Shown here: positions 4,600-36,029 of the stretch, in pieces | How positions within the stretch are numbered: the stretch's first letter is position 1 | Layout: each line of letters begins with the position of its first letter | Assembly (NCBI GenBank): GCA_016292335.1 | Contig: JAECRX010000097.1 | Span: forward strand, 1 to 38,150 | Direction: 5' to 3' | DNA: 38,150 nucleotides | DNA from: Candidatus Sifarchaeum subterraneum | GTDB lineage: Archaea > Asgardarchaeota > Sifarchaeia > Sifarchaeales > Sifarchaeaceae | Position numbers and translations under genes: made by a program | The notes under the pieces: model-generated | What the model was told of the DNA's origin: nothing | Seen by the model: the letters and a program-made list of their open reading frames with translations, nothing else | The model's database searches: none

Positions 4600-5151
4600 T
4601 TGTTCTACGACTATAATGAAAAATCACCAAAAATCCATGAGACTGCCTTTATTCATCCAACTGCTCTTGTTGTTGGAGATGTTGAAATTGATAGAAAAAG
4701 TTCAATATGGACTGGATGCATTCTCCGAGGGGATCTTGGAAAGATAAGAATAGGTGAATATACCTGTATACAAGATCGATCAATTCTACACCCCGGCGAG
4801 GTCTTTTTATTTGAAGAGGAGAAAATCATACATAAGCCAATAACTATCGGAAGTAATGTACTGATCGGAAAAAATGTAGTAATTCAAGCGAGTTATATAG
4901 GTGACTTGGTTGTCATAGAATCAGGTGCAACAATTGAAAAAGGAGTTCAAATTAACGAAGGAGCTGTTATTGGGCAAAACTCTTTTGTGCCCGCAAATTT
5001 TGTAGTAGCTCCACAAGCAGTTTTAATTGGAAATCCTGCACGAAAACTCAGAACAATCGATAGAGGCACTTTGGAGCAACATAGAGAAATAACATGGCTG
5101 TTTGCAAAATATGCGGAACAATATCAAACAAAAAAATTGAAGAAACGATGA
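4600..5151 (+). CDS. Left-handed beta-helix (hexapeptide repeat) protein, gamma-carbonic-anhydrase/PaaY-like but lacking the conserved His pair
   Basis: 183 aa. Motifs are IHPTALVVGDVEI, SIWTGCILRGDLGKIRIG and CIQDRSILH, with repeated [LIV]G hexapeptides. The usual GH..LHG position reads GKNVVIQAS. Confidence 0.8.
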   Translation: MFYDYNEKSPKIHETAFIHPTALVVGDVEIDRKSSIWTGCILRGDLGKIRIGEYTCIQDRSILHPGEVFLFEEEKIIHKPITIGSNVLIGKNVVIQASYIGDLVVIESGATIEKGVQINEGAVIGQNSFVPANFVVAPQAVLIGNPARKLRTIDRGTLEQHREITWLFAKYAEQYQTKKLKKR

Positions 5152-6342: not shown

Positions 6343-7599
6343 ATGAATCGAGTATCAAAAAAATATGGCATAAGAGATTGGAAGAAAAGAAGTTCAATTC
6401 ATGCTTTGGTATTAGAAACCGTAAGAAGAAAGAATGTAATTGATAGGTTTCTTTCACTAGCACTAAAATCTGGTTCAATACACAAAACTCATCCAATACT
6501 GCGAAACATTCTTAGAGTAGCAACTTATGAAATGAAATTTACAATGACTTCTCCACAATTGGCAACAGATACAGCCGTTAAAATTGGTAAAGAAAAACTA
6601 GGTGAAAAACAAAGTAAATTTATTAGTGTATTACTTGGAGAAATAGAAAAAATTGGATTACGCAATTTATATCGTGAATTCGGAGATATTGAAAGAGATA
6701 GCTTACGCTATTATTTTCCGGTCTGGTTTGTAAAATACCTGATAAAACTTTTTGGTGGAAGAAATTCTACTATAAATTTTCTTCAAAAAAGTAATACATT
6801 GCCAAGAGTTTTTATCAGGGTGAATACACTGAAAATAACAAGGAAAAAACTCATTAGAATGATGGAAAAAGAAGGAATCAAGTGTAAGGTGGATACAGAT
6901 TTAGAAGATGTTATAGAAATTCTAAAAACAGAAAAACCAATAGTAAGACATCCTTTACATTACAAAGGTTTTTTTACTATTCAAGATAAATCTTCAGCAT
7001 TGGCTTCTCATATTTTACACCCAAATCCAGGTGAAACTGTTCTTGATATTTGCGCAGCACCAGGCAGTAAAACAACTCATTTAGCACAATTGATGAAAAA
7101 TAATGGAAAAATTGTTGCCATAGACATCTCACAGCGAAGAATGAAAGAATTAATTCGGAGAACGAAAGAATTTGGTATTAAAATAGTACAACCTATTGTT
7201 ATGGACGCAAAAATGCTCAATCTTAAAAGAAAATTTGATAAGATTTGCGTGGATCCCCCATGTAGCAGTACCGGCGTTTTATGGTCTAGACCGAGCCAAA
7301 GGTGGAGGATCACTAAAAGATTAATTGAAAAATTTTCGCGATTACAGTATGATATCTTGTCTTCCTCTGCGAATTTCATCCGAGAAGGTGGGCAGATCAT
7401 TTATTCAACATGTTCAGTTACGATTGAAGAAAATGAAATGGTGATCGAAAAGTTCCTTAAACACAATCCGGATTTCCAATTGAAATCTTCAGACCCCATG
7501 ATCGGTCAGCAAGGTTTTCGCGGACTAACGGAATGTCAAAGACTTTTTCCACACAAACATGGTACTGAAGGATTTTTTATAGCAACAATGGTTTGTTGA
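6343..7599 (+). CDS. RsmB/NOP2/Sun-family RNA cytosine-C5 methyltransferase (N-terminus possibly frame-broken, see findings)
   Basis: 418 aa. It has a NusB-like N-terminal region, the SAM site DICAAPGSKTTHLA, motif IV DPPCSSTG and motif VI YSTCS. Confidence 0.85.
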   Translation: MNRVSKKYGIRDWKKRSSIHALVLETVRRKNVIDRFLSLALKSGSIHKTHPILRNILRVATYEMKFTMTSPQLATDTAVKIGKEKLGEKQSKFISVLLGEIEKIGLRNLYREFGDIERDSLRYYFPVWFVKYLIKLFGGRNSTINFLQKSNTLPRVFIRVNTLKITRKKLIRMMEKEGIKCKVDTDLEDVIEILKTEKPIVRHPLHYKGFFTIQDKSSALASHILHPNPGETVLDICAAPGSKTTHLAQLMKNNGKIVAIDISQRRMKELIRRTKEFGIKIVQPIVMDAKMLNLKRKFDKICVDPPCSSTGVLWSRPSQRWRITKRLIEKFSRLQYDILSSSANFIREGGQIIYSTCSVTIEENEMVIEKFLKHNPDFQLKSSDPMIGQQGFRGLTECQRLFPHKHGTEGFFIATMVC

Positions 7600-7935: not shown

Positions 7936-8592
7936 TTAGACTAAGACTATTCCTTTTTCACGTTCTATTTTAAAGGGCATATATTTATGTGTAAATTTTG
8001 TTCTGTGAAGTTTAGATACGCGAAGGTATCCGTCGTACTTTTCAACGTCGCTAGGGACCAAATCAATTATTCCATCATATATTGTTCTTGCCGCAACTTC
8101 TAAGCTGGGCGGTATCCCGCCTTTGGTGTAGATCGCCATTCCTACTGATTCATATTGCCATAATCGTTCACGCCAAACCCTTGTGCTGAGTAAAGTATAT
8201 GAAGGTGGAGATAAGTGGACTAAGGGTGTTACTACGATTCCTAGGCGATCGACTCCGCCCAGTTTTTCAACTTCCTTTAATAGAAACCTGCTTACCGCAT
8301 TGAGGTCATTAAACATTTGACCAGGAATCTCAAGGATTTTAAGACTTTTATCAATATATGGCTCAACATTCCAGCCGAATTCTTCCATACTGCGTTTTAC
8401 GATATATTCAGTTTCCGTGGTGGCTACGTATAAACATTTTTCATTATTTTTAGCCCCATAATATACAAATTGTTCGGCTAAAATAGTTTCCGCGTAACCA
8501 TCAAAGCCCCATATCGACAGGAAACTTCCTTTGGGAAAGCCTCCTTCGATCGTTTCATCGAGTCCGGGAATTCCAGATCGAACTTTTTCCAT
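7936..8592 (-). CDS. KaiC/RecA-superfamily paralogue with degenerate Walker A (probably non-catalytic)
   Basis: 218 aa. The N-terminus SGIPGLDETIEGGFPKGS is KaiC-like. The P-loop position reads WGFDGYAET instead of GxxGxGK[ST]. It starts 15 nt downstream of the active paralogue, behind a GAGGT SD. Confidence 0.7.
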   Translation of the reverse strand: MEKVRSGIPGLDETIEGGFPKGSFLSIWGFDGYAETILAEQFVYYGAKNNEKCLYVATTETEYIVKRSMEEFGWNVEPYIDKSLKILEIPGQMFNDLNAVSRFLLKEVEKLGGVDRLGIVVTPLVHLSPPSYTLLSTRVWRERLWQYESVGMAIYTKGGIPPSLEVAARTIYDGIIDLVPSDVEKYDGYLRVSKLHRTKFTHKYMPFKIEREKGIVLV

Positions 8593-8607: not shown

Positions 8608-9309
8608 TTAAGCAATAGGCCTAACGACAATACCATTGTCGGTAATTTCCATTGGAAATTTGCCTATGGTATGGTCAGATCCTCTTAGTTTTCGTATTTC
8701 TATTAATCTTCTTCTAACCATTTCAAATTCTCTGAAAAAAAGCAAAATTATTCCATCAACCACAAATTCTTCAACTCCGTATCGACTGACACCAATGGCT
8801 CCCTCTGGTAGTTCAGAAATTAAAATTGCGGTACAATCTAGCTGTTTCAATCTTCCACATAGAGTGTTAAGATCTCTACGAACTACCTCTTTTCTTTGAA
8901 GTGACATTATAAGAGATGTGACTGAGTCTAAGACCACCCTTTTTGAATTATTTTTTTTGATGGCAGTTTCAATCCTTGTTAGCAGGCCACTTAAATCATA
9001 GGGCCCCCTTTCTATAATTCTGTATTCGTCCCTCGGCAACGCATCGACAAAAATAATTTTATTTGTTTCTGTCAATTTTTCGAGGGACCATCCAAAAGCT
9101 TTTGTATTTTCAATTATTTCCTCTGGAGTCTCATTGAAGGTAACATATACCCCGTTTTCGCCATTCTCAGCTCCGTAGATGAGAAATTGTGTTGATAATA
9201 TACTTTTTCCAGTACCTGCTCCACCAGCGAGTAGTATTGTTTTCCTCTCTGGAAAACCCCCGTGTAACATATCATCTAACCCTGGGATTCCTGTTTGAAT
9301 TCGTTGCAA
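8608..9309 (-). CDS. KaiC-like RecA-superfamily ATPase (single domain)
   Basis: 233 aa with a TTG start behind GGGTGATC. Motifs are TGIPGLDDMLHGGFP, Walker A GGAGTGKS and Walker B-like RVVLDSVTS. Confidence 0.8.
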   Translation of the reverse strand: MQRIQTGIPGLDDMLHGGFPERKTILLAGGAGTGKSILSTQFLIYGAENGENGVYVTFNETPEEIIENTKAFGWSLEKLTETNKIIFVDALPRDEYRIIERGPYDLSGLLTRIETAIKKNNSKRVVLDSVTSLIMSLQRKEVVRRDLNTLCGRLKQLDCTAILISELPEGAIGVSRYGVEEFVVDGIILLFFREFEMVRRRLIEIRKLRGSDHTIGKFPMEITDNGIVVRPIA

Positions 9310-9488: not shown

Positions 9489-10076
9489 TTAAACTATTGT
9501 TTCCTCAGAAATTTTTGTTTTTTCCTCTTTTGGAATATTATGAAGGAAGATTTTTTTAACTAATACTTCAAAAACTCTCTCCACATTTTCACCTGTTTTT
9601 GCAGAAGTTTCAAAATAACTCGTATTCATCCTATTGGCAAAATGATAACCATCAATTTCTGGTACTGACCTGAGATATCTGAGATCTGATTTATTACCAA
9701 CTAAAACAGTTGGAATTTTACCTGCATGGTTTAGAAGTTCATTTGACCAATTATGGAGATCCATGAAAGTATCAGGTCTTGTTAAATCAAAAACAAGTAT
9801 ACTTCCCCTTGCGCCAAGATAATATGCTCGTCTTACTTCTTTGAAGTGAGGTTGACCGCCCAGATCCCATATCACAAGCTTGGTGTTAATTCTTTTATTA
9901 AACTCACTGAAAACAATGTTTTTTGAAGAAATATGTGTTCCCATCGTCATTATATAGTCTCCAACAAAATAGTTTTCAACATACCTTCGAATCAAAGATG
10001 ATTTACCTACTGCTGGATCTCCGATGACAGTTACTTTGAATAAAAAATCAGCCAATAGTTTTTCCCTCTTCATCAT
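9489..10076 (-). CDS. Rab/Ras-like small GTPase
   Basis: 195 aa. G1 is GDPAVGKS, G3 is WDLGGQ, G4 is GNKSD and G5 is ETSAK. Confidence 0.85.
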   Translation of the reverse strand: MMKREKLLADFLFKVTVIGDPAVGKSSLIRRYVENYFVGDYIMTMGTHISSKNIVFSEFNKRINTKLVIWDLGGQPHFKEVRRAYYLGARGSILVFDLTRPDTFMDLHNWSNELLNHAGKIPTVLVGNKSDLRYLRSVPEIDGYHFANRMNTSYFETSAKTGENVERVFEVLVKKIFLHNIPKEEKTKISEETIV

Positions 10077-31379: not shown

Positions 31380-32060
31380 AGGAAAGTTTAGCTTCATGTT
31401 TATTAATTCTCTTCCATGGGTCATCGAGCCTAGAAAATCACTGGCGATCACTGGTGTGAGGGGCCAGATATCGGTTGGTTTTAATCTGATTCTCAGCCAA
31501 CCCCAATCACTCATTAGTTTTCCCTCGTCCCCTTCAATTGACGAAGGGATCTCCTTTTCCAAGATTCATGGAATTTAAATCGGAATAAAGCTCTTTTTAA
31601 GCTCTCGGTTTGTATATCTAAATTATTGAGTCAATAGCTTGATTGGTCATCCACAATTCGTTGGAAAAATTGCAATCGTATTGATCCAATCGCTCTCGTA
31701 CACTATTGACTTATCTTCTTCACTTAAGGTCTAGGCTCTTAGAAACCATGTATGGTTTACACTCAGATATTTTATAGAAGCAATACATGCCGTGAGGAGC
31801 AAATGATATCTTAGAGATGTGTACCCGACGCTCATACACTCATTTAAGGCTCCCAAGTCGTAATCCTTAATAATTGCTGAGTGTAGTTTTTTCGCATCAG
31901 ATTCAGGAAGTTTTTTGCAAGGTAAAATTCCTACACGGGCTTCAGCTTGACATTGTACATGAGGAGTTCATCAGTGGTCGTAGTAAGTTTATGCTTGTCA
32001 ACCGTTTTAGGCATTTTCTGATTTCTGGACAAGCCGGCTTGAAGTCACTTAATCATCAGT

Positions 32061-33293
32061 TTATCGGTAATATCCATGATCTTCCACCGCTTTGAAAACT
32101 GCATCAATATTTTGCTTAGGAGTATCACTTGTTATAGCTACAGGCGTGATAATTAACGGTGTTTCATTTTGAACTGCCAGTTTACAAAGATTTGCAACAT
32201 GGTTATACACTTCAGTAGCAAGGGCATCCCTGAGGAAATATGGCATCACTGTATAGGTATAACACCTTGAGATCTCTCCACATAACTTTATCATCTGAGC
32301 ATCATCCACATCCAATATTCCCATCCTATTAACGTCAAAACATATTGGAGCAACAAGTGTTGTTAAAGGGGAATATTTCTTCTCTTTAACACTTAAGCGT
32401 AATAACTTTTCATAACTACCTTCTGTATTTGGATAATAGGTAACAGCAGGATTTTGCCTTTTAAGCAATTTTAGAGTGTCCAAAACATAGGGATAAACAT
32501 GTTCCAAGAAATCTTTCACCTCCACGATCGGAGGACTAGCATACAACTCCCAAATTATAGTCCCAAGCGGATCTACATCGTTGCGCCTATATTCTCTAAT
32601 GATCTTCTTTACTATTTCTTTGTAAACCTCTATTTCATCCAGAAAAAAGGTAGGATAAATTTCTAACTCTTCCTCACAATATTTTTCAATCAATTTCTTC
32701 TCTTTCTCACTTTCAGCATTTATATACGATAAATATGATACAAAGTCCTCCATCAATTGGATTTGCCCTCTGACAAAACATCCTAGTGTAAATGGACCAG
32801 TTATAAGAGGACTTTGTATAGACTCGGGAAATTCTTCTTGAGCCAATGCATATGTTTCTACAGAATAATGAAAGTATTCACTTGAATCGGGGATATCAAT
32901 CCCTGCTAAGTCCTCAGCATCCTTAACAATTGTATCCACGTTGGTTGGATAATTCCAATTAACTATTTGCATTGGAACTCCCATTTCAGGTAGTCCACTA
33001 CCTAATAGTGGACCCCCCCAGTAAACATTGGCGATCATATCGGGATTATACAAATAGATAAGCTTTCGAGCAACCTCTATATTGAATTTTGGGTCTTTTA
33101 AAAATAATTTCCAATGATATTTTGGATTAACAAATTTGGGGTCAATGTTCATCGGAACAAGTATAGTTGAAACTCTATCAGTACATTTCCCCATAGTGGT
33201 CAAAATAAATCTTTCAGAATTAGACAGACTTCTTCGTAAATAATTTTTAAAATTACCTTTCACCACTAACTTTAGAACATTTAAGATTCCCAA
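32061..33293 (-). CDS. URO-D-like (MtaA/MtbA/CmuA-type) methyltransferase, divergent
   Basis: 410 aa. The N-terminal SERFILTTMGKCTDRVSTILVPM matches the URO-D-family ER..a..G...DRvPv start. It overlaps the upstream corrinoid-protein gene by 13 nt. Zinc-ligand motifs are not clearly recognisable. Confidence 0.55.
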   Translation of the reverse strand: MGILNVLKLVVKGNFKNYLRRSLSNSERFILTTMGKCTDRVSTILVPMNIDPKFVNPKYHWKLFLKDPKFNIEVARKLIYLYNPDMIANVYWGGPLLGSGLPEMGVPMQIVNWNYPTNVDTIVKDAEDLAGIDIPDSSEYFHYSVETYALAQEEFPESIQSPLITGPFTLGCFVRGQIQLMEDFVSYLSYINAESEKEKKLIEKYCEEELEIYPTFFLDEIEVYKEIVKKIIREYRRNDVDPLGTIIWELYASPPIVEVKDFLEHVYPYVLDTLKLLKRQNPAVTYYPNTEGSYEKLLRLSVKEKKYSPLTTLVAPICFDVNRMGILDVDDAQMIKLCGEISRCYTYTVMPYFLRDALATEVYNHVANLCKLAVQNETPLIITPVAITSDTPKQNIDAVFKAVEDHGYYR

Positions 33294-33979
33294 GCCTCTT
33301 CCACCATCATACCTTTTAATCTATCATATGAATTATTTAACAGATCATTCGCAACGTAAACAGCTTCACGGGCATTTTTAGCATATGAGTCAGCACCAAT
33401 TGCTTTGGCAAATCTTGGTGAAACGGCCAATCCCCCAACTATAATTTTGAAATCAAGATTGTTTTTTTCCCTATACTCTATGAGTTGCAAGACTGCTTCT
33501 TTCAGGGAGATATTTGCAGTTGTGTCCAACCAAGCAGCTAATCCGATAATTTGAGGGTTATGTTCCATATAGCCGTCAATAAACATTTGATATGAAACAT
33601 CAACTCCAAGATTAATTACTTCAAAACCATCTCCTTCTAAAAATAATTGAACAATTTTAGTTCCAATCGAATGTACATCTCCTTCGACAGTACCTAACAA
33701 GATTTTTCCCTTGGTTGAAATCTTAGGAATTAAAGGTTCTATGATTTCCTTTGCCTTATCAAATGCTTTGGCACTAAACCAAACATCAGCAACGCAATAC
33801 TTTTTCTCCTCAAAATATTGTCCAATTCTTTCCATGGCATTGCTCAAAATCTCAAGAATAGTATAAACGGGGACATCATTTTTCAAAATCTCCTTAACAA
33901 GTGTTTCAACTAAATATGGTCTTCCTTCAATGACCATTTTTTCTAATTGATTCAGGCAATCCAAAGATAATACCTCCAT
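33281..33979 (-). CDS. Methyltransferase cognate corrinoid protein (B12-binding, MtaC/MtbC-type)
   Basis: 232 aa. It has an N-terminal B12-binding_2 cap, the DxHxxG motif as GDVHSIG, and downstream IVGG and GADSYAKNAREAV. Confidence 0.85.
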   Translation of the reverse strand: MEVLSLDCLNQLEKMVIEGRPYLVETLVKEILKNDVPVYTILEILSNAMERIGQYFEEKKYCVADVWFSAKAFDKAKEIIEPLIPKISTKGKILLGTVEGDVHSIGTKIVQLFLEGDGFEVINLGVDVSYQMFIDGYMEHNPQIIGLAAWLDTTANISLKEAVLQLIEYREKNNLDFKIIVGGLAVSPRFAKAIGADSYAKNAREAVYVANDLLNNSYDRLKGMMVEEAWES

Positions 33980-33988
33980 TAATTATAA

Positions 33989-34765
33989 TTATGAAATTTT
34001 GCCCAATTGAGTAAAACCACTTAGATAGGTTCTTTTTTCCTCAAAATTGCATAAGCCGAGTTCGTAAAGTGAAATAAAAAAGCTATAAATTAAAGAAAGA
34101 TCAAATCCTATTCCCAACTTTTTCCAAATTTGTAAAAGTGAGCGATTATTATCAGTATGAGAAAGGATTTTGTTGATCATTTCAAGATCATATTTTCTAA
34201 CAAGTTCAGCGGCAAGTGAACCTTTTAGAATCTTATATTTTTGTTCTTTAGATATGATCGGAATTTTTTGTCTTGAAAACGTGAGTAAATCCACTTGAGT
34301 AATTTGAGGTTTCTCCTTTGATTTGTATTCATTGATTCGATTATTCAGTCTATTTGGATCGATTGTTTTTATCCAACCATCAAAATTAATCAGATCCCCC
34401 TCTGCTTCCTCCAATATCATTTCAGACTCTTCTATAAAAGGTTGAACAGGAACTGATGAGTCAATTATGAAGAACAGTAGATCCTTCACTACAGTATTAT
34501 CTGTTTGTCGTTCATTTCGAGCAATAATTATTTTTTCCCCCTTAAAATCAATAGAATCGATAGAAGTATCTGCAACGCCCATGTGGAATTGAGCTAATAA
34601 CATAGGATCCCGGAGAGTTTCAATAAACCTTGAATTTTCATTGAAAACTTTTTCAAAGGCTATAACTGGCCCTAAAGTTGTATCAAACACGACTAGAATA
34701 ATTGCTTTCAGCCCACATTGACTTAATTCAGATTGAAACTCATCTTCAGTCATTTTATGAATCAT
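33989..34765 (-). CDS. Orphan protein, predicted GTPase partner (N-terminal alpha/beta domain, C-terminal helical/winged-helix-like part)
   Basis: 258 aa. Its start overlaps the upstream GTPase gene by 11 nt. The N-terminal LKAIILVVFDTTLGPVIAFEKVF resembles the first strands of longin/roadblock-type folds; this is inference only. Confidence 0.55.
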   Translation of the reverse strand: MIHKMTEDEFQSELSQCGLKAIILVVFDTTLGPVIAFEKVFNENSRFIETLRDPMLLAQFHMGVADTSIDSIDFKGEKIIIARNERQTDNTVVKDLLFFIIDSSVPVQPFIEESEMILEEAEGDLINFDGWIKTIDPNRLNNRINEYKSKEKPQITQVDLLTFSRQKIPIISKEQKYKILKGSLAAELVRKYDLEMINKILSHTDNNRSLLQIWKKLGIGFDLSLIYSFFISLYELGLCNFEEKRTYLSGFTQLGKIS

Positions 34766-35333
34766 TTTTTCTACTACCTATCCCATCGATAATTGACAAT
34801 AATTTGTAAAATGCGGTTTTAACATTCAATCCTGTTATTGAAGAAGTTCCAATAACTGGAATATTATTCTCAATTCCCAATATTTTTGCAATTTCCTCAG
34901 GTTTCAAAGCTGCTGGCAAATCTTGTTTATTAGCACAAACAACAAAAGGAACATTAATAGTCTCCTTTAAAAGTTTCAGAATTAATTTGGATTCCTCGAT
35001 TATTTGAGAACTGGCAGTTGAATCAACGAGAAGAAAAGCTCCTTTAGAACCCGCCCACCATAGATTCCATAATGGTCTATACCTTTTTTGACCACCCAGT
35101 TCCCAAAGAATAGCATGTATGTTTTCAAAAGGTATTTTGTAAAAAGCCACACCGGGAGTTGGCTTGTATTCATGACAAGCAATTAAGTTGTTTTCGAATT
35201 CTTCTGCAATAATACTTTCAAGTACTTTACCCATTGTAGTTTTTCCAGATCCTCCACTTCCCATTAAGAGCAACTTAACGTTTGAAACAATTAGAGGAGT
35301 ATTTGACTTATGACTTCCATTAACACTGATCAA
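34755..35333 (-). CDS. Arf/Sar-like small GTPase
   Basis: 192 aa. G1 is GSGGSGKTT, G3 is WELGGQKRYRPLW (Arf-type WDxGGQ..R.lW) and G4 is NKQDL. Confidence 0.85.
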   Translation of the reverse strand: MISVNGSHKSNTPLIVSNVKLLLMGSGGSGKTTMGKVLESIIAEEFENNLIACHEYKPTPGVAFYKIPFENIHAILWELGGQKRYRPLWNLWWAGSKGAFLLVDSTASSQIIEESKLILKLLKETINVPFVVCANKQDLPAALKPEEIAKILGIENNIPVIGTSSITGLNVKTAFYKLLSIIDGIGSRKNDS

Positions 35334-35759
35334 TAATAAATAACCCTAAAAGAATATTCTTACTTCTTTAAAAACTCCACCAAATACTTAGATTCAGCGC
35401 CTAAATTACTCGATCAATGCCCAGTTTTAATGGAAAACTTGTTAAAAAACAAGAAAACACTGCATAGGGTTTTGTTTTTATTTTATGCTCATTTTATGGA
35501 ATATGCCCTAATTATTATTTAAGAGTAAAAATTAACCTTCAATGGAAACAAATATAAGACGTGAAAAAGTCTTTAGGTATTAGTATGAAGAAACTGACCT
35601 GCGCTGAGTTTTCTGTAAGAAGAAAAATAATGATGAGTTGCAACTCCACGGATCAAATTTGATTGACCGAAAATATCTTAAAAAAACTCTTTCTCCCTCT
35701 TAAATGAAGAAACGAGTAAAGGAAATCCCGTTAATGAGAATACAGGAGGTAAATACTTT

Positions 35760-36029
35760 ATGTGGGATTTTCTTATATTGTTAGGAATAATAATTACATT
35801 CATAGGAGTAGGAATAATCTTCTTAGGAATAGCTTTGAAAACAGTGGAGAAGCAAGAGCGAGATACAGAGAAAAAGGAAGTTCGCAATACAAAAACAAAG
35901 GGAGGAGGAGTTATATTAATAGGTCCAATTCCGATAATTTTCGGGACAGACCGTAGTATTGTCATTATTGCGATAATTGGAGCTATTATCCTCATAGTAT
36001 TGTCAATTATATTTTTCATTTATTTATGA
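35760..36029 (+). CDS. Small archaeal membrane protein, DUF131/TIGR00304-like
   Basis: 89 aa with an ATG behind GGAGGT. Two hydrophobic helices flank GGGVILIGPIPIIFG. Confidence 0.55.
   Translation: MWDFLILLGIIITFIGVGIIFLGIALKTVEKQERDTEKKEVRNTKTKGGGVILIGPIPIIFGTDRSIVIIAIIGAIILIVLSIIFFIYL

Follow-up and report, generated by a model that had tools for sequence, protein, structure and literature searches.

A four-gene operon of Sifarchaeia-related Asgard archaea joins genes for an Arf-family GTPase and an NPRL2-like longin protein to genes for a corrinoid protein and a URO-D-like protein

The contig JAECRX010000097.1 of the Asgard archaeon Candidatus Sifarchaeum subterraneum (assembly GCA_016292335.1) was analyzed over positions 1 to 38,150, and this whole stretch of 38,150 nucleotides is called the window here. 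Its open reading frame (ORF) listing contains four consecutive minus-strand ORFs, running from 35333 to 32061, that encode a small GTPase, a longin-domain protein, a corrinoid protein and a URO-D-like protein in that order.

34755..35333, minus strand: Arf-family small GTPase of 192 residues with a TTG start, identified from Pfam Arf, PDB matches and orthologues
33989..34765, minus strand: NPRL2-like longin-domain protein of 258 residues, with a longin domain at about residues 1–150 and a helical C-terminal part, identified from an AlphaFold2 (AF2) model and Foldseek
33281..33979, minus strand: methyltransferase-type corrinoid protein of 232 residues, with a four-helix cap and a Rossmann B12-binding domain, identified from Pfam
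32061..33293, minus strand: predicted divergent TIM-barrel protein of the URO-D/MtaA superfamily, 410 residues with a TTG start, identified from Pfam URO-D

The GTPase gene overlaps the gene for the 258-residue protein by 11 nucleotides, the corrinoid gene follows after a gap of 9 nucleotides, and the corrinoid and URO-D-like genes overlap by 13 nucleotides. This layout had been proposed in a preliminary description of the sequence, together with the motifs GSGGSGKTT, WELGGQ, NKQD and DVHSIG; it was borne out in full, and all four motifs translate from the coordinates that we checked. With the alternative start Met-5 of the 258-residue protein, a gap of 1 nucleotide after the GTPase stop codon takes the place of the 11-nucleotide overlap, and the junction is tight with either start. 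Pfam supports three of the four identities (Arf, B12-binding_2 with B12-binding, and URO-D), and because conserved homologues exist elsewhere all four ORFs are real genes rather than chance ORFs.

Locus searches were seeded with the URO-D-like and longin proteins, with scans of 185,579 species-representative genomes and of JGI metagenomes. The same four genes were found in the same order in 10 of 10 informative loci (the window, a contig of JGI 3300042731, and loci L003, L007, L009, L010, L011, L016, L018 and L020), and the partial contigs L001, L002, L008, L017 and L019 all fit this order, with no counter-example. The named genomes that carry the cluster are those of Borrarchaeota/Borrarchaeum and Sifarchaeum, which Vargova et al. 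unite in the single class Sifarchaeia. The copies outside the window represent about five species-level Sifarchaeia lineages that are 77–87% identical among themselves. Relative to the window their cluster proteins are 44–49% identical (34–37% for the longin protein), a divergence like that of the housekeeping protein RsmB (44%), which suggests that they descend vertically from a shared ancestor. Conservation of this neighborhood across Asgard archaea, which the preliminary description had raised, is upheld in every informative locus as regards gene order; as regards breadth, it is confined to Sifarchaeia/Borrarchaeota and the lineage of the window.

An all-against-all comparison revealed that just these four genes are common to the window and the other loci. 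They occur in three genomic contexts, being flanked by PurA/DUF131 and NusA/L30e in the window, by an RNAP-D/L18e/L13/S9 operon and RsmB in loci of the L007 type, and by an SF1 helicase and ABC-aux/MMPL genes in L003 and L009. The GTPase/longin junction measures between −11 and +3 nucleotides in all nine loci with DNA covering it. In all cases where neighboring genes could be seen, neither the short form of the longin protein nor the URO-D-like subfamily was found outside the operon. The preliminary description had held that a GTPase and 258-residue pair occurring without corrinoid genes would indicate chance juxtaposition; no such pair was found, the short form being seen only in the cluster. 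The four genes form a self-contained, vertically inherited operon of Sifarchaeia-related Asgard archaea, and their products most likely act as one unit.

We weighed these data against the alternative that two unrelated pairs, the GTPase with the longin protein and the corrinoid protein with the URO-D-like protein, were adjoined in a common ancestor and have been co-transcribed since through inertia. The confinement of the cluster to two deep lineages is compatible with this, as are the Sifarchaeia junctions after the longin gene, where the longin/corrinoid and corrinoid/URO-D-like junctions are same-strand gaps of about +20 to +60 nucleotides and so looser than the GTPase/longin junction. Against it, the cluster has remained intact over at least three shifts in its genomic surroundings, with its proteins now ~45% identical, neither pair was seen alone, both lineage-specific subfamilies occur nowhere else, and in the window the two pairs are joined by the 9-nucleotide gap plus overlaps. 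We therefore judge inertia to be very improbable.

In the metagenome-assembled genome of Borrarchaeum weybense the operon occurs twice, on separate contigs and between different flanking genes (L009 7905..11416; L010 7910..10483). The copies diverge unevenly, the GTPases being 82.5%, the longin proteins 98.5% and the corrinoid proteins 95.9% identical. They could reflect paralogous duplication with faster evolution of the GTPase, recombination, or a mixed-strain bin.

The motifs of the GTPase lie at the following positions.

35235..35261, minus strand: P-loop GSGGSGKTT (G1), from translation, with Gly-25, Gly-30 and Lys-31 invariant in orthologues
35151..35162, minus strand: switch I PTPG with the conserved threonine (G2), from alignment and translation
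35088..35105, minus strand: WELGGQ, comprising G3 and the catalytic glutamine, from alignment and translation
34920..34931, minus strand: NKQD (G4), from alignment and translation

The assignment to the Arf type, and so to the Ras superfamily rather than the SIMIBI class, agrees with the preliminary description. The Pfam Arf model is matched at 4.2e-22 with 78.9 bits (cut-off 22.3), versus 46.3 bits for Ras and 34.6 bits for Roc, and each of the 60 top-ranking sequence matches in the PDB is an Arf or Arl protein, among them Arf1, Arf6, Arl1, Arl3, Arl8 and the Asgard Arf GTPases 8oul and 8ouk. The full G1–G5 set is present, with the P-loop, the switch I threonine, the catalytic glutamine, NKQD and TS(S/A). 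Relative to Arf1, an insertion of ~8 residues precedes PTPG. In the DxxG element of G3 a glutamate replaces the near-universal aspartate in 6 of 6 aligned cluster GTPases, whereas a Ras-like paralogue in the window keeps the aspartate. Orthologues with 47–49% identity occupy the same position in L003, L007, L009, L010, L011, L016, L018 and L020. The N terminus of the window GTPase (MISVNGSHKSNTPLIVSN) gave a hydrophobic moment of 0.18–0.30 in a simple calculation, versus 0.57 (hydrophobicity H 0.40) for Arf1; in the orthologous GTPases of Sifarchaeia the N-terminal moment reaches 0.60, yet the segment is hydrophilic overall.

The second small GTPase of the window (9489..10076, minus strand) is Ras/Rab-like, with a Pfam Ras match at 1e-44. 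It is followed on the same strand by two genes for KaiC-family ATPases, one with a full KaiC match (8608..9309, 1e-77) and the other with a partial KaiC match and a weak MEDS match (7936..8592). We considered it as a paralogous copy of the module and rejected this on account of its Ras/Rab-like type and its KaiC-like neighbors; the segment 7936..10076 (minus strand) may be a further GTPase-containing module.

The 258-residue protein was called an orphan in the preliminary description, a label that has to be given up. By sequence it has no match in Pfam (E ≤ 0.1), NCBIfam or the PDB, its family profile likewise has no PDB match, and a word-index homology search returned only the protein itself, while an exact look-up of contigs encoding it had no result. 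An exhaustive HMMER search of 1.84 billion representatives recovered one other full-length cluster and longer proteins that share only the N-terminal ~130 residues. A single-sequence AF2 model with a predicted local distance difference test (pLDDT) score of 42.6 was replaced by one built from an alignment of 24 sequences, which left out four locus-derived orthologues. In this model residues 1–150 have a pLDDT of ~90 and form a longin-type α/β domain of topology β-β-α-β-β-β-α. The top ranks of a Foldseek search against the PDB are taken by NPRL2, Npr2 and NPRL3 of GATOR1/SEAC (E values of 1e-4 to 5e-3, probability 0.99–1.0, alignments of ~264 columns), and Ragulator roadblocks, AP sigma, a Lokiarchaeal longin, Fuzzy-Inturned and BLOC-3 chains are found among the lower matches. 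Asgard families of NPRL2-like proteins with a longin and a small C-terminal domain have already been described (Liu et al., bioRxiv 10.1101/2020.10.19.343400), and the 258-residue protein is a new family of an already known kind. Its orthologues always sit between the GTPase and corrinoid genes.

Two conserved elements of this protein bear on its proposed role as a regulator.

34667..34687, minus strand: GP motif F-D-T-T-L-G-P in the β1-β2 loop, with Phe-27, Asp-28, Gly-32 and Pro-33 invariant in 27 of 27 family members
34508..34519, minus strand: R83-N-E-R86, a candidate arginine finger near the tip of the β4-β5 hairpin, from conservation

The sole segment that hhalign pairs with NPRL2 is the GP-motif stretch, QCGLKAIILVVFDTTLGPVIAFE (FHPTLGP in NPRL2), with a score that is not significant; a relaxed alignment is collinear with NPRL2 over both domains at a probability of 3%. 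The hhalign alignments to NPRL2, and those to MtaA described below, are statistically insignificant and were used for motif register only. Arg-83 is conserved in 90% and Arg-86 in 80% of the longin-family members. The GP motif is present in the longins of GTPase-activating proteins (GAPs), namely FLCN, NPRL2, SMCR8 and C9orf72, and in some Asgard longins, and longins that act as guanine nucleotide exchange factors (GEFs) or scaffolds are without it (PMC12290439). Since the 258-residue protein is an NPRL2-like GP-motif longin, the GTPase and its partner make up a recognizable pair of switch and regulator, and from the retained catalytic glutamine, the GP motif and the conserved arginines we infer that this is a switch/GAP pair.

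The rest of the scheme would be unchanged if the longin protein were instead a GEF or a passive platform, in the manner of Mon1-Ccz1, DENN, TRAPP or Ragulator, and this question is independent of the direction of control between GTPase and enzyme. Most characterized longin and roadblock regulators are GEFs or scaffolds, the Foldseek matches extend to Ragulator, AP sigma, Fuzzy-Inturned and BLOC-3 chains, and homology to NPRL2 is not significant at the sequence level. The invariant GP motif, reported to be absent from GEF and scaffold longins (PMC12290439), argues the other way, as do the top-ranked structural matches to NPRL2/Npr2, the conserved arginines near what is apparently the hairpin of NPRL2 Arg-78, and the catalytic glutamine of the GTPase, which an arginine-finger GAP would complement. 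On balance we regard a GEF or platform as doubtful.

Two groups of longer relatives share the longin domain. A 431-residue protein, P0008 (L004 10001..11296; L005 1919..3214), keeps the FD...GP residues and has glutamine in place of both Arg-83 and Arg-86; its gene is flanked by translin and molybdenum-cofactor genes with no GTPase nearby, and it is possibly a branch of the family without GAP function. Relatives of ~400 residues from Heimdall-, Thor- and Gerdarchaeota were considered as operon members and rejected on account of their other neighborhoods: they do not lie beside GTPase or corrinoid genes, so the association with these genes is specific to the short longin form. They combine a GP-motif longin domain with a winged-helix-like C terminus (L012 3766..7224; L013 3756..7209; L014 234..3669; L015 3790..7209; L006 349..3818). 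Each is preceded by a conserved, mostly helical protein of ~553 residues with no Pfam match, and in three loci a PAS-HATPase histidine kinase is encoded further upstream. These relatives may belong to a separate longin complex tied to two-component signaling.

The third gene encodes the B12-binding corrinoid protein with a DVHSIG motif that the preliminary description had recognized, and Pfam domains and invariant motifs confirm it.

33662..33679, minus strand: DVHSIG, the base-off/His-on cobalamin motif DxHxxG, residues 101–106, invariant in all orthologues

Both Pfam matches exceed their cut-offs (B12-binding_2, PF02607, 3.5e-11, 43.6 bits; B12-binding, PF02310, 3.1e-17, 63 bits), and the downstream motifs (S/A)WLDTT and IVGG are also invariant across the orthologues, which are 46–50% identical to the window protein. 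The NCBIfam models MtgC, pyl_corrinoid, MtbC, MetH and MtaC match at 1e-35 to 1e-22, and methyltransferase-type corrinoid models match far better than mutase subunits. No substrate-specific equivalog cut-off was reached with MtgC (122 of 370 bits), MtbC (112 of 350) or MtaC (79.5 of 420). A CarH-like B12 photoreceptor was rejected, the CarH model giving just 25 bits and a DNA-binding domain being absent.

The fourth protein was described in the preliminary description as a URO-D-like methyltransferase. Membership of the URO-D superfamily holds, with a Pfam URO-D match of 29.9 bits (cut-off 23.9) restricted to residues 59–206 in the window protein and matches above the cut-off in 5 of 5 family members (best 1.1e-10). 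The methyltransferase label is less secure, being drawn from the corrinoid neighbor. The protein and its profile have essentially no meaningful PDB sequence match. An hhalign alignment of the family to MtaA (4ay7) is collinear over 304 columns at low probability and starts at residue 30; in this low-confidence alignment the zinc-ligand segments LHICGN and APGCGI of MtaA are paired with T-Y-Y-P-N/D and T/S-P-V-A-I/L-T. On this comparison the protein appears to be without the canonical thiol-activating zinc site of MtaA, His-x-Cys...Cys.

33231..33293, minus strand: N-terminal extension MGILNVLKLVVKGNFKNYLRR, a conserved amphipathic helix before the MtaA-homologous region, from alignment and hydrophobic moment
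Zinc-ribbon-bearing URO-D-like genes, with the ribbon in the C-terminal ~60 codons: L001 822..2261; L002 1387..2802; L007 10001..11416; L009 10001..11416

The first ~29 residues precede the MtaA-homologous region and follow the pattern MGxLxxLKLVxKxxxKNxLR. Twelve of the first 20 positions are invariant, versus ~45% identity overall, and the M-G N terminus, invariant in all homologues, supports the TTG start of the gene. In Sifarchaeia the N-terminal 11-mer has a hydrophobic moment of 0.65 (H 0.35), versus 0.57 (H 0.40) for the Arf1 helix. The Sifarchaeia homologues also carry a C-terminal zinc ribbon, CPxC...CPxC, of ~60 codons with weak HypA/Zn_ribbon Pfam matches; a ribbon remnant or split gene 3′ of the window gene was sought and rejected, none being found downstream. 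Among 5.8 billion proteins the subfamily consists of five clusters at 90% identity, including that of the window, and the other four all adjoin a corrinoid gene. These proteins define a new subfamily of the URO-D superfamily, marked by the apparent loss of the MtaA zinc site and by the N-terminal amphipathic helix.

The preliminary description had remarked that corrinoid methyltransferase systems normally come with an ATP-dependent reductive activase of the RamA type. We found no RamA/RACo-type activase gene in the 38-kb window, nor did the flanks of L007 and L009 contain one over 10 kb. Second methyltransferase and cobalamin genes are absent from the flanks across the three genomic contexts, and a redox cofactor motif was not detectable in any of the four operon proteins. 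These observations bear on two further explanations of the operon.

In the first, the GTPase and its 258-residue co-factor would gate cobalamin loading, or the ejection or repair of Co(II), replacing RamA or MeaB; GTP-gated cofactor loading or repair, as the preliminary description had put forward, is speculative. The lack of an activase gene in or near the operon and the strict co-occurrence of the GTPase with the corrinoid protein lend themselves to such a role, and MeaB/MMAA is a general precedent for G-protein gating of B12 enzymes. The GTPase, however, is a TRAFAC switch of the Arf type and not a G3E/SIMIBI chaperone, its partner is a GAP-type longin typical of signaling switches, no redox motif was detected that would deliver the electron for reductive reactivation, and an activase may be encoded elsewhere in the genome, as is commonly the case. 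Because the class of the GTPase and its longin partner are typical of signaling and a redox module is missing, we rank this explanation below one in which the GTPase switches an effector, and the chaperone role as a whole strikes us as quite improbable.

In the second, the corrinoid and URO-D-like proteins would be the input, sensing a methyl donor, cobalamin or redox state and modulating the longin GAP, and the GTPase would report to targets elsewhere, by analogy with SAMTOR and other sensors that act on GATOR1. Among known structures the longin protein most resembles NPRL2, which is the GAP subunit in nutrient-sensing GATOR1, the apparent loss of the MtaA zinc site fits a binding role over a catalytic one, and neither a second methyltransferase nor an activase lies nearby to complete a pathway. 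Fusion to signal-transduction domains is, moreover, frequent among Asgard NPRL2-like longins (Liu et al., bioRxiv 10.1101/2020.10.19.343400). Set against this, the corrinoid protein has lost none of the cobalamin-binding motifs that mark the partners of catalytic methyltransferases, a downstream target is not apparent, and the exclusive co-occurrence of four genes, with no lone GTPase and longin pair, fits a dedicated effector better. We consider a sensory role for the enzyme pair unlikely.

The reading that we favor, tentatively and at somewhat less than an even chance, is that an Arf switch and its longin GAP regulator control the corrinoid and URO-D-like methyl-transfer pair as their effector. 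The longin protein, translationally coupled to the GTPase, would be its dedicated regulator, most probably acting as a GAP and contributing an arginine from beside the GP motif. The corrinoid protein and the zinc-less URO-D-like protein would form a cobalamin-dependent enzyme pair for methyl transfer, and the GTPase in its GTP state would bind this pair and switch it on, assemble it or localize it. The N-terminal amphipathic helix of the URO-D-like protein possibly takes part, as a site of docking to a membrane or a partner, and GAP-stimulated hydrolysis would reset the switch. Arf proteins classically recruit and allosterically activate enzymes and coats, and an enzyme pair as effector would match this role. 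Formation of the complex, the GAP and methyl-transfer activities, and the direction of control from GTPase to enzyme are all predictions of this scheme.

Several observations weigh against it. In the GTPase, the amphipathic N-terminal helix that is a hallmark of Arf proteins is not evident by the hydrophobic-moment calculation for the window protein. For the longin protein, the C-terminal helical half of the AF2 model is of low confidence, the Foldseek TM-scores are ~0.3 when normalized to the whole query, and at an hhalign probability of 1–3% sequence homology to NPRL2 is not detectable, so that what ties the protein to NPRL2 is a modeled fold and a motif only. The placement of Arg-83 and Arg-86 on the same hairpin as NPRL2 Arg-78 is a provisional equivalence drawn from sequence and model and not from a superposition, and a longin domain is less commonly a GAP than a GEF or scaffold. 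The URO-D-like protein matches none of the NCBIfam families at E ≤ 0.1, no conserved His or Cys is found in its family at the three zinc-ligand positions of MtaA in the low-confidence hhalign alignment, and its sequence is so divergent that catalysis cannot be assumed. A lone methyltransferase and its corrinoid protein would make up a full pathway only if the enzyme carried out both half-reactions, as MtsA does. Finally, the conservation spans two deep lineages, one represented by the window and the other by a single clade of about five Sifarchaeia species.

A more elaborate version can be drawn from the same parts, in which the Arf switch, the NPRL2-like GAP and the corrinoid pair form a stoichiometric complex. 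This complex would be an archaeal relative of the metabolic axis of longin GAPs and small GTPases (GATOR1-Rag, and C9orf72-SMCR8-WDR41 (CSW) with Arf), wired to one-carbon metabolism, in which the cycle of the GTPase controls, and is controlled by, the methyl or cobalamin state of the enzyme and the URO-D-like subunit supplies the membrane helix of Arf in trans. We hold this version to be distinctly unlikely. If it were true, the operon would contain the first Ras-superfamily GTPase that controls, or is controlled by, a B12 enzyme, and an Asgard longin with a GP motif would for the first time have a GTPase partner assigned to it from genome data.

Each component of the operon belongs to a known superfamily, and comparison with known systems brings out what the combination shares with them and where it differs. 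Like GATOR1 (NPRL2-NPRL3-DEPDC5) with Rag, and like SEACIT with Npr2/Npr3, it pairs a GP-motif longin bearing a conserved arginine with a small GTPase, and the architecture of NPRL2/Npr2, a longin with a small C-terminal domain, is collinear with that of the 258-residue protein. Unlike in GATOR1, the GTPase is Arf-like rather than a Rag and lacks a C-terminal roadblock domain, a single longin gene stands in place of an NPRL2/NPRL3 heterodimer, DEPDC5 is absent, and the partners are corrinoid and URO-D-like proteins rather than components of lysosomal nutrient signaling. The CSW and FLCN-FNIP complexes also contain GP-motif longins that are arginine-finger GAPs, and CSW acts on GTPases of the Arf family, the family of the operon GTPase (PMC12290439). 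These eukaryotic proteins differ in carrying DENN modules and working as heterodimers; FLCN is a weak structural match of the 258-residue protein (6ulg_N, E = 0.02).

Among prokaryotic systems, MtaABC, MtbA/MtbC, MtsA/MtsB and the O-demethylases similarly place an MtaC-type corrinoid protein with DxHxxG beside a protein of the URO-D superfamily, and MtsA/MtsB is a known two-gene layout of one methyltransferase and one corrinoid protein. The operon differs from these systems in the apparent absence of the MtaA zinc site, the extra N-terminal helix, the C-terminal zinc ribbon in Sifarchaeia, and the lack of RamA nearby, and we know of no corrinoid methyltransferase system with a small GTPase or longin protein among its components. 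MeaB/ArgK (MMAA) resembles the operon as a GTPase genetically coupled to a B12-dependent protein. MeaB, however, is a G3E protein of the SIMIBI class that serves adenosylcobalamin mutases, whereas the operon has an Arf-type GTPase with a longin protein and a B12 protein of the methyltransferase type. A Ras-like GTPase gene lies beside that for a regulator of the roadblock/longin superfamily in MglA/MglB and in the Streptomyces conservons (CvnA-D, often with a cytochrome P450), and conservons add an enzyme gene; these systems differ in their GTPase families (MglA, CvnD), their regulators, which are roadblock and not GP-motif proteins, and their enzymes. The Asgard operon with LAMTOR1-like, Rab-like GTPase and DENN genes described by Liu et al. 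is alike in being a conserved operon with longin/roadblock regulators of eukaryote-like GTPases, and differs in combining a Rab-like GTPase with roadblock and DENN proteins and no metabolic enzyme.

The preliminary description had supposed the coupling of such a GTPase to a corrinoid module to be undescribed. In agreement with this, a limited literature search, which is not proof of absence, found no publication describing the linkage of GTPase, longin, corrinoid and URO-D genes. B12, cobalamin and corrinoid genes go unmentioned in Liu et al. (bioRxiv 10.1101/2020.10.19.343400), two papers on Asgard Arf proteins make no mention of gene neighbors, operons or cobalamin, methyltransferases and GTPases are separate entries in the papers on the Sifarchaeota genome and on Atabeyarchaeia, and a paper on mlp clusters with MtaA homologues contains no GTPase. 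The combination is thus apparently undescribed and limited to a narrow lineage.

Small GTPase genes of Asgard archaea generally lie outside operons with longin or roadblock genes (Tran et al. 2024), and which Asgard GTPases (ArfR or Rag) partner GP-motif longins, and whether these longins are GAPs, has been posed as a question (PMC12290439). The operon pairs an Asgard Arf-family GTPase with a candidate GP-motif longin regulator across ~45% divergence, an assignment that genome layout rarely allows, and its proteins are small and should suit a direct GAP assay. The pair of switch and regulator is tied here to a cobalamin-dependent enzyme pair, as predicted above, and not to parts of membrane trafficking. 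Should the coupling prove functional, it would suggest that Arf/longin modules already served in metabolic control, among other roles, before eukaryotes arose, and a Ras-superfamily GTPase would join the few G-proteins known to cooperate with B12 enzymes, a group that to our knowledge has so far held only the SIMIBI-class MeaB/MMAA.

The surroundings of the operon delimit it on both sides.

35334..35759, minus strand: AT-rich intergenic region 5′ of the GTPase gene, 426 nucleotides, without a cluster ORF of at least 60 residues

This region is presumed to contain the putative promoter of the four-gene unit; it was scanned with bacterial-type models, which are uninformative for archaea. A divergent DUF131 gene begins at 35760 and bounds the unit upstream. 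On the 3′ side lie ~480 nucleotides (31580..32060) with no ORF above 73 residues, no Rfam match and no convincing terminator, followed by convergent NusA-KH and L30e genes. A structured RNA in or around the operon, including a cobalamin riboswitch, was not found by Rfam at E ≤ 1, and riboswitch control was rejected on this ground. An anti-phage defense system was likewise rejected, PADLOC having no match for any of the four proteins.

A gene for an rRNA methyltransferase of the RsmB/NusB type lies directly 3′ of the operon in several Sifarchaeia loci and 25 kb away in the window, a distance that places it outside the conserved unit.

RsmB/NusB-type gene: L001 2463..3809; L002 2988..4334; L007 11546..12964; L008 2508..3857; window 6343..7599, plus strand

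Elsewhere in the window (4600..5151, plus strand) a 183-residue protein with hexapeptide repeats, which form a left-handed β-helix, matches the Pfam model of dynactin subunit 5 (DCTN5) with 51.2 bits against a cut-off of 40; this match is probably a generic β-helix similarity.

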